Of a stretch of DNA of 64,000 bases, positions 54,895-56,325 are shown in pieces. Numbering within the stretch: the first letter of the stretch is position 1; the number at the start of each line of letters is the position of its first letter. The DNA lies in assembly GCF_050920415.1 (NCBI RefSeq), contig NZ_CP169309.1; one strand, written 5' to 3'. The position numbers and the translations under genes were made by a program. The DNA comes from Escherichia coli (lineage in GTDB: Bacteria; Pseudomonadota; Gammaproteobacteria; Enterobacterales; Enterobacteriaceae). The notes beneath the pieces were generated by a model. That model was not told where the DNA came from. It was given only the letters and a program-made list of their open reading frames with translations, and did not search any database.

Positions 54895-56325
54895 TTACGG
54901 TTCCCAGCGCAGTTCGTCGTTTGACAATGCGTCGAACGGTTCGACAAGCGTTAGCGTGATCTCATTGGAGGAGACACGCTGCCCCTGGTTATCTTCCACC
55001 ACTACAGACAATCGCCAGCGATTGCTTGCCCCTTCCCCGTTTTGCCAGTCAGGCATGATCAGCGTCCAGCCCTCCGCGCTATTGGCTTGTGCGCCCGGCG
55101 TCAAACTTAATATCTGCGTATCGCCCTGCCAAATCAGTTGCCGAATACCATAACGACTGCGGATTTGTAATTTCAGCGGCACTGTTTCGCCAGGTTTTAG
55201 ATCCCACGGCGGTGTTGCCAGAAACACCGTTAACGTTTTTCGCTGTCGGTACTCAAGAGTCGGTAGATTATTTCGCTGCGGATTATCATAGCGACTACCA
55301 CGTAACGACTGACTTTCGGCAACCTCGCCTGCAGAAAGTTGTTTTTTGAGTGGTACACCAAAACGGTAGTTAAGATTCAGCCCGAGGTTATTTTGATTCT
55401 CGCCGCTTTCACCCTGTTTATGCTGGGCCGTCACCGTGACTAATGGCACTGGGGTATAATTTAATCCCAGACTCAACGCGACGGGATTGTGATAACCCGT
55501 ACCAGAGTTAAATAAATCAACGCGATCACCAAAATACTGTTCTACGCTGACGCTGGTATTGAGGTGTTGATAGAACGGCATGCGCATCCGGGCCGTCAGA
55601 TCGTACCCGCGCGCCATCCTTTGTTCTTGTATGGCTGTCTGTTCATGCCATGCAGCAAACGGCTGATAATAGTTTGCTGATAGCCGCAAATATTCGCCCC
55701 ACGCTTCGGCGCCAAGGCCTGCTCGCTGAAGATTTTCGTCCAGCAAGTTGTCATAAAAGGTGTTATACCCCACCAGCCAGTTGCCGCGCGCCCAGCGTTG
55801 CCCAACTCCAAGATTGCTCACCAGCCCATCATCCTGCTGAGTAAGACCAAGCTGGCTCCAGGTGAGATAACGATCATTATCCTGTAAAGGCACAAACCAA
55901 CTTCCGCGACTGCCGGTGAAATGACCTTCGTTATCTACTTTGACGTCAACACTGGCATTTCCCCACGGTGATAGCCAGGATTCCAGGTGCTGATTAACCT
56001 GCTGACTAAGCGCGTCGCGGACTTTTCCCAATGCGAAAGCTTTTGCCTGCTCGCCAGTATCCAGCCCGTTATCATTCATACTGGTTTCGCCGAAATCTTT
56101 CACAATTTCAGCAAAGTGTTTTTCCCCATCATGATTTTCGGGAGCCATGCCTAAATCCGGCAGACCATCATTGTTATTATCAAAGGGATTTGCCGCTTTT
56201 TGCTCGAAGGTAGATTGTGCGTTAGCTGTACCGCCTGCCGCCAGCAAGAGTAAATAAAACGGAATAATGCGAGGAACGAAACGGCTCAAAACGTCGGTAA
56301 CTTCCGGTAAAAAATGAAAAACCAT
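54895..56325 (-). CDS. ychO: Invasin/intimin-like outer membrane protein YchO (476-aa reading with signal peptide; a 417-aa form would start at the internal Met 56148)
   Basis: Residues 17-36 of the long form look like a cleavable signal peptide (AXA site ANA-Q); convergent and abutting narL. Confidence 0.8.
   Translation of the reverse strand: MVFHFLPEVTDVLSRFVPRIIPFYLLLLAAGGTANAQSTFEQKAANPFDNNNDGLPDLGMAPENHDGEKHFAEIVKDFGETSMNDNGLDTGEQAKAFALGKVRDALSQQVNQHLESWLSPWGNASVDVKVDNEGHFTGSRGSWFVPLQDNDRYLTWSQLGLTQQDDGLVSNLGVGQRWARGNWLVGYNTFYDNLLDENLQRAGLGAEAWGEYLRLSANYYQPFAAWHEQTAIQEQRMARGYDLTARMRMPFYQHLNTSVSVEQYFGDRVDLFNSGTGYHNPVALSLGLNYTPVPLVTVTAQHKQGESGENQNNLGLNLNYRFGVPLKKQLSAGEVAESQSLRGSRYDNPQRNNLPTLEYRQRKTLTVFLATPPWDLKPGETVPLKLQIRSRYGIRQLIWQGDTQILSLTPGAQANSAEGWTLIMPDWQNGEGASNRWRLSVVVEDNQGQRVSSNEITLTLVEPFDALSNDELRWEP

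Follow-up and report, generated by a model that had tools for sequence, protein, structure and literature searches.

Start codon and signal peptide of the intimin/invasin-like gene ychO in an Escherichia coli locus with a polymorphic upstream T-run

YchO and the inverse autotransporters

Intimin (EPEC/EHEC) and the Yersinia invasin are the prototypes of the inverse autotransporters (type Ve), and their β-barrels have been solved (4E1S and 4E1T, respectively). YchO shares with them a homologous 12-stranded β-barrel (E = 2e-48 to the invasin barrel 4E1T and E = 3e-41 to the intimin barrel 4E1S) and the order signal peptide, barrel, putative C-terminal passenger; however, it is far shorter, with about 110 residues past the barrel. 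No Pfam domain is found in this C-terminal stretch at E <= 0.01. The periplasmic LysM domain, which occurs in intimin and some inverse autotransporters and is not universal among them, has no Pfam match in YchO, nor do the Big_1 and Ig passenger domains, and only about 40-70 residues separate the cleavage site from the barrel. The barrel itself (55267..56100, minus strand; residues 76-353 of the 476-residue frame discussed below) is recovered by the Pfam model IAT_beta (PF11924) with E = 1.7e-103, over model positions 4-279 of 279. The protein scores 803.3 bits against the NCBIfam equivalog NF007556 (YchO/YchP family invasin; cut-off 508) and falls far under the curated cut-offs of the NCBIfam intimin, SinH, Ilp, and IatC models. 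By these profile and sequence comparisons, the ychO product is a small inverse autotransporter of the intimin/invasin-like type Ve.

The gene was analyzed in a window of 64,000 nucleotides of E. coli DNA, whose ORF listing contains a minus-strand frame of 476 residues starting at an ATG (54895..56325); a preliminary description of the same DNA had named this longest frame, leaving its strand unstated. The gene lies between the segments narX-narL and ychN-chaC, and this narL-ychN position is conserved in the window, in a strain that is 100% identical to it over 1.7 kb (MFDS1022581), and in K-12. YchO of K-12 (b1220, NP_415738.2) has the same gene context, a TTG start, the signal peptide and the IAT_beta barrel, and the DNA of the two shows about 96.5% identity over the 1.7-kb region; it differs in that the window allele has one extra T between an upstream ATG and the TTG, which gives rise to the 476-residue frame.

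The exact YchO protein of the window is also present in E. coli M863 and STEC_7v, which we take to be cryptic clade I strains. Almost all complete E. coli genomes show only about 96-97% identity to the ychO region (54800-56500), and an identity of at least 99% is reached in just 4 of 5,424 matching records. Given this low identity together with the match to M863 and STEC_7v, the window may come from a divergent Escherichia lineage. Matches to the region on plasmid-labelled records number 13 of 5,431, and some genomes carry up to three copies; these could represent F-prime-like elements, misassignments, or duplications.

Candidate start codons and the signal peptide

Three in-frame codons, all on the minus strand, come into consideration as the start of ychO: the ATG at 56325-56323, which opens the 476-residue frame; a TTG at 56289-56287 (codon 13 of that frame), which gives a CDS of 464 codons and a TAA stop (54895..56289); and an internal ATG at 56146..56148 (Met60 of the 476-residue frame, the methionine of DLGM in the conserved LPDLGM), the obsolete start of a 417-residue form (476-59 = 417). 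The preliminary description had set the first of these against the last and overlooked the TTG, which also keeps the signal peptide. Signal-peptide calls were made by a rule-based analysis of hydropathy and charge (Kyte-Doolittle, 9-residue mean). The 476-residue translation opens with MVFHFLPEVTDVLSRFVPRIIPFYLLLLAAGGTANA|QSTFEQ, so the Sec signal peptide quoted earlier for its first ~36 residues, followed by Q, is indeed found there, with putative cleavage between residues 36 and 37 (ANA|Q). Both the 464- and 476-residue forms contain the hydrophobic core IIPFYLLLL (9-residue mean of 2.68) followed by GG-TANA-Q, and both show the n/h/c organization with the ANA|Q site. The n-region of the TTG form, MSRFVPR, comprises seven residues with a net charge of +2, whereas that of the ATG form, which includes the 12-codon upstream extension MVFHFLPEVTDV (56290..56325, minus strand), has 19 residues and a net charge of 0, its two arginines being offset by E8 and D11. 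The 24-residue signal peptide of the 464-residue form (56218..56289, minus strand), namely MSRFVPR / IIPFYLLLLAAGG / TANA and then Q, thus appears to be of the canonical Sec type, with a cut that we infer to fall after ANA. Since precursors from the ATG and the TTG have the same cleavage site, they would yield an identical mature protein (QSTFEQ onward).

The 417-residue form lacks the n/h/c organization and the ANA|Q site: it has no hydrophobic segment, its hydropathy maximum is 0.89, and the net charge of its N-terminus is -6. The earlier judgments that this form is devoid of an export signal and that Met60 is implausible as the start of an outer-membrane protein both hold up, the latter by virtue of the β-barrel recognized through Pfam, 4E1T and 4E1S. 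An outer-membrane β-barrel cannot get to the membrane without Sec export and, as a start at Met60 forfeits the export signal, the real start must lie 5′ of the hydrophobic core. Moreover, the 47 codons 5′ of Met60 are conserved as protein in all relatives (including NPFDN and LPDLGM). Although Met60 is an ATG, was formerly the annotated start, and has nominally the best anti-SD duplex of the three codons (-4.6 kcal/mol), this energy is within random expectation and the match lies 13 nt away; we consider it extremely improbable that translation starts there and produces a protein without a signal peptide. The older 417-residue K-12 annotation mentioned in the preliminary description is consistent with the accession version (.2) of the K-12 protein, with a 417-residue GenBank entry for the window allele, and with the study of APEC SEPT362 by Pilatti et al. 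2016 (BMC Microbiol 16:35, PMC4787180), in which the deposited 1,254-bp ychO was without a signal peptide and 141 bp of upstream signal sequence were restored. With these 47 additional codons, the 1,254-bp (417-residue) annotation becomes the 464-residue form. That study met the same Met60 problem and came to the same conclusion as the present one; in contrast, the ATG further upstream and the T-run polymorphism are absent from its discussion. The signal-peptide question is already settled in RefSeq/K-12 and was published in 2016. Papers treating ychO among the inverse autotransporters yielded nothing on the start codon, and the TRAINSPOTTER supplements have no ychO entry.

Between the upstream stop codon and the hydrophobic core, the only in-frame ATG, GTG, or TTG codons are ATG1 and TTG13. 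We compared them across 15 outgroup loci obtained from one scan of species-representative genomes, comprising divergent E. coli and other Escherichia lineages, E. whittamii, 11 Citrobacter species, and S. enterica subsp. arizonae. The sequence TTG-AGC-C is invariant at the aligned position in all 15, none of which contains an in-frame ATG anywhere from the upstream stop to the TTG; in nine Citrobacter loci the stop codon lies just five codons 5′ of the TTG. The n/h/c arrangement recurs in the outgroup orthologs, where (A/S/C)-x-(A/G) precedes a Q or, in C. portucalensis, an R. The NF007556 alignment pairs residues 17-466 of the 476-residue frame with model positions 3-452 of 454; as residue 17 corresponds to model position 3, the model starts about two residues past the TTG and leaves out the 12-residue extension. 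The outgroup conservation is the strongest evidence for the TTG as the conserved start, and it points to this codon as the functional one.

The TTG is also the start annotated in RefSeq for MFDS1022581 (464 residues), for K-12 MG1655 (b1220, NP_415738.2; 464 residues, 1273784..1275178), and for five or six other intact strains inspected, among them K-12 RV308, EC958, and O157:H7 EDL933; MG1655, RV308, EC958, and EDL933 have the same 1395-nt CDS. RefSeq does not use the ATG even in strains with six T's in the upstream run (MFDS1022581, EDL933). PGAP itself chooses starts by homology, so that this annotation does not count as evidence separate from the comparative argument. The exact YchO allele of the window has been deposited as 464 residues (95 contigs), 476 residues (32 contigs), and 417 residues (one contig); with a single allele deposited at three lengths, the annotation heterogeneity is real.

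The inspection of ribosome-binding sites upstream of the candidate starts, which had been put forward as a check, does not discriminate between them, since the anti-SD duplex energies (-3.7, -4.1, and -4.6 kcal/mol for ATG1, TTG13, and ATG60) are near the random mean of -3.9 ± 2.5 kcal/mol. An AAGG is found 2 nt from the upstream ATG, which is a poor spacing; 11 nt upstream of the TTG is the weak Shine-Dalgarno-like purine block GGAAG (56301..56305, minus strand), whose position is kept in the aligned relatives as GGAAG, GGAAA, or AGAAR. The AU content is 74% near the ATG as against 51% near the TTG, and the predicted mean unpaired probability is 0.49 for the ATG region as against 0.35 for the TTG region; predicted RNA accessibility would thus mildly favor the ATG, though not decisively. 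ATG is also an intrinsically stronger initiator than TTG. The combination of AU-rich, more open RNA with the stronger initiator makes some initiation at the ATG plausible in 6-T strains. Separately, at about 21-16 nt 5′ of the TTG, five of the Citrobacter loci (L016, L018, L019, L021, L023) carry ATG-TAA in frame as a ‘start-stop’ pair, situated in a conserved GTAAGAA block that is a candidate Shine-Dalgarno region; the pair itself may be due to chance.

We infer that the ychO precursor is most probably translated from the TTG at 56289. Initiation at this codon would produce a 464-residue pre-protein, whose first 24 residues, MSRFVPRIIPFYLLLLAAGGTANA, would serve as a classical Sec signal peptide removed by signal peptidase I after ANA, upon which the mature YchO would insert its β-barrel into the outer membrane and display the short C-terminal passenger. 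Accepting this, the preference of the preliminary description for an upstream start stands insofar as the start must precede the hydrophobic core, but not in its choice of the longest frame, since the TTG at codon 13 is better supported. Against the TTG are its weak Shine-Dalgarno-like GGAAG (11 nt away, -4.1 kcal/mol) and the prospect that a part of the initiation, or even most of it, could shift to the ATG in 6-T strains.

The polymorphic T-run and the upstream ATG

Whether the upstream ATG is in frame with ychO depends on a polymorphic T-run at 56309..56314 (minus strand), which in an alignment of the 5′ region is T6 in the window, T5 in EC958, and TTATT in K-12; it is the six T's that place the ATG in frame and thereby create the 476-residue frame. 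K-12 (ATG at about 1273749 of NC_000913.3) and EC958 have the ATG out of frame, where it reads MVFH(Y/F)YRKLPTF*, with a +1-frame TGA overlapping the TTG start (TTGA, 56286..56289, minus strand). We counted alleles as exact matches of short allele-specific queries in about 5,416 E. coli records (5,426 RefSeq complete genomes). In-frame alleles are the ATG with T6 (1294 records) and the EDL933 variant ATGTTT + T6 (309 records), and out-of-frame alleles are T5 as in EC958 (1223 records) and TTATT as in K-12 (2537 records). The upstream ATG is accordingly in frame in about 30% of the records and out of frame in about 69%, the remaining 1% or so being other variants, such as that of strain AST85, in which the ATG is mutated to ATT. 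A set of 60 evenly spaced matches, sampled as an independent estimate, had 17 (28%) without the gap.

Because the outgroup Escherichia have the 5-nt form (T5), the sixth T is a derived insertion; and a frame-changing indel at such a high frequency indicates that the 12 codons are not selected or maintained as ychO coding sequence. An extension of 12 codons through an in-frame upstream ATG is in itself unremarkable by chance. The upstream ATG, 36 nt 5′ of the TTG, thus lies outside the conserved gene, and the ancestral and majority state has this ATG out of frame, heading at most a mini-ORF of 12 codons whose stop overlaps the TTG. In the window strain and about 30% of E. coli, the extra T fuses the ATG in frame to give the 476-residue ORF, and any initiation at the ATG in the window strain would add only a longer, charge-neutral n-region that is removed anyway. 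What is mildly new here is only this T5/T6 polymorphism, by which the upstream ATG either opens a mini-ORF out of frame or extends ychO in frame.

The deposition of 476 residues by other annotation pipelines (the 32 contigs mentioned above) corresponds to a reading in which the ATG at 56325 is the principal start in the window, and the signal peptide is one of 36 residues with an extended n-region. The in-frame state of this ATG in the window and in some 30% of complete E. coli genomes (O157:H7 among them), its stronger initiator codon, the AU-rich and predicted more open local RNA, and the retention of the whole hydrophobic core and ANA|Q in the extended form all favor it. However, about 69% of E. 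coli have the same ATG out of frame, it has no in-frame counterpart in the 15 outgroup loci, the 6-T run is an insertion relative to the outgroup Escherichia, the AAGG is at only 2 nt with a duplex of -3.7 kcal/mol, E8 and D11 abolish the positive charge of the n-region, and RefSeq passes over it even in 6-T strains; on balance we regard it as unlikely to be the principal start. The N-terminus of the 476-residue form, MVFHFLPE, may resemble that of the Yersinia invasin, a likeness that we do not favor as meaningful, since the ychO orthologs have no in-frame ATG at all.

The out-of-frame state invites a different interpretation, wherein the 12-codon leader ORF MVFH(Y/F)YRKLPTF of the 5-nt alleles would be translated and coupled to the TTG, with ribosomes that finish the leader re-initiating there and so boosting the weak start, and with the 6-T allele replacing this by direct fusion. 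Overlapping stop/start tetranucleotides are a classical arrangement for translational coupling. The exact TTGA geometry is found in K-12, EC958, and the divergent strain E69, a GTG takes the place of the ATG in strain SCPM-O-B-8794, and the TTG is without a convincing Shine-Dalgarno sequence of its own. Yet the leader lacks a start codon in Escherichia sp. E1V33, E. whittamii, and E. coli of the AST85 type, is nonexistent in the Citrobacter loci, and is not annotated as a small ORF in K-12 MG1655, while its TGA arises automatically, as Leu-Ser is encoded by TTG-AGC. With the mini-ORF missing outside E. coli, we reject such coupling as a conserved mechanism, and its operation in the 5-nt alleles seems quite improbable. 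A related proposition, that the 5T/6T polymorphism is a lineage-level switch in ychO translation, is to our mind distinctly unlikely. Under it, in the 5-nt lineages (K-12, ST131) the leader ORF terminating on the weak TTG would feed that codon, and in the 6-T lineages (O157:H7, O145, the window strain) translation would start directly at the ATG with an extended, charge-neutral signal peptide; if true, invasin expression or the efficiency of Sec targeting would differ between pathotypes, the mature protein being unchanged. Translation from the TTG remains the interpretation that we prefer.

Gene surroundings and the import of the start choice

The gene ychN (56475-56828, plus strand) is divergent from ychO, and a scan of the intergenic region between them for sigma-70 promoters returned as its sole match one over the start region of ychN (56500-56472). 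An exact match to TCGGTACAGGTTTTGCA lies antisense inside ychN (56706-56722, minus strand); Bonocora et al. 2015 (PMC4591121) describe this sequence as the ChIP-seq sigma-54 binding site IA11, within ychN, oriented toward ychO and 405 nt upstream of it. If IA11 is active, the ychO leader would be roughly 400 nt long and hold both the ATG and the TTG. The ychN-ychO intergenic region further contains a palindrome, AGGATTTTCCT followed by GAAAGCGCGAGAAAA (56380-56390, minus strand; flanks about 56361-56392), whose version AGGATnnTCCTGAAA is kept recognizably in Escherichia, several Citrobacter, and S. arizonae amid otherwise diverging DNA; the palindrome is a candidate binding site for a regulator. 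According to a ChIP-exo preprint, ychO belongs to the YfeC-repressed regulon and is de-repressed when yfeC is deleted. A short terminator-like hairpin, TGACCAATCGGTCA followed by CATTTTTAAG (56399-56412, minus strand), is also found in this divergent intergenic region, and is probably not significant, given that its stem is lost in strain E69. On the other side, narL (plus strand, stop ending at 54894) converges with ychO (minus strand, stop at 54895-54897) with zero intergenic bases, leaving no room for a terminator between them, and ychO-narL is listed among the convergent excludons of E. coli by ExcludonFinder (PMC12288877).

As the ATG and TTG precursors would mature to the same protein, the choice between these two codons is of little consequence. 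The importance of the start assignment is one of annotation hygiene only: the 417-residue form would misclassify an outer-membrane adhesin as a cytoplasmic protein, and a one-base homopolymer indel in the 5′ leader can lead a ‘longest ORF’ rule astray.
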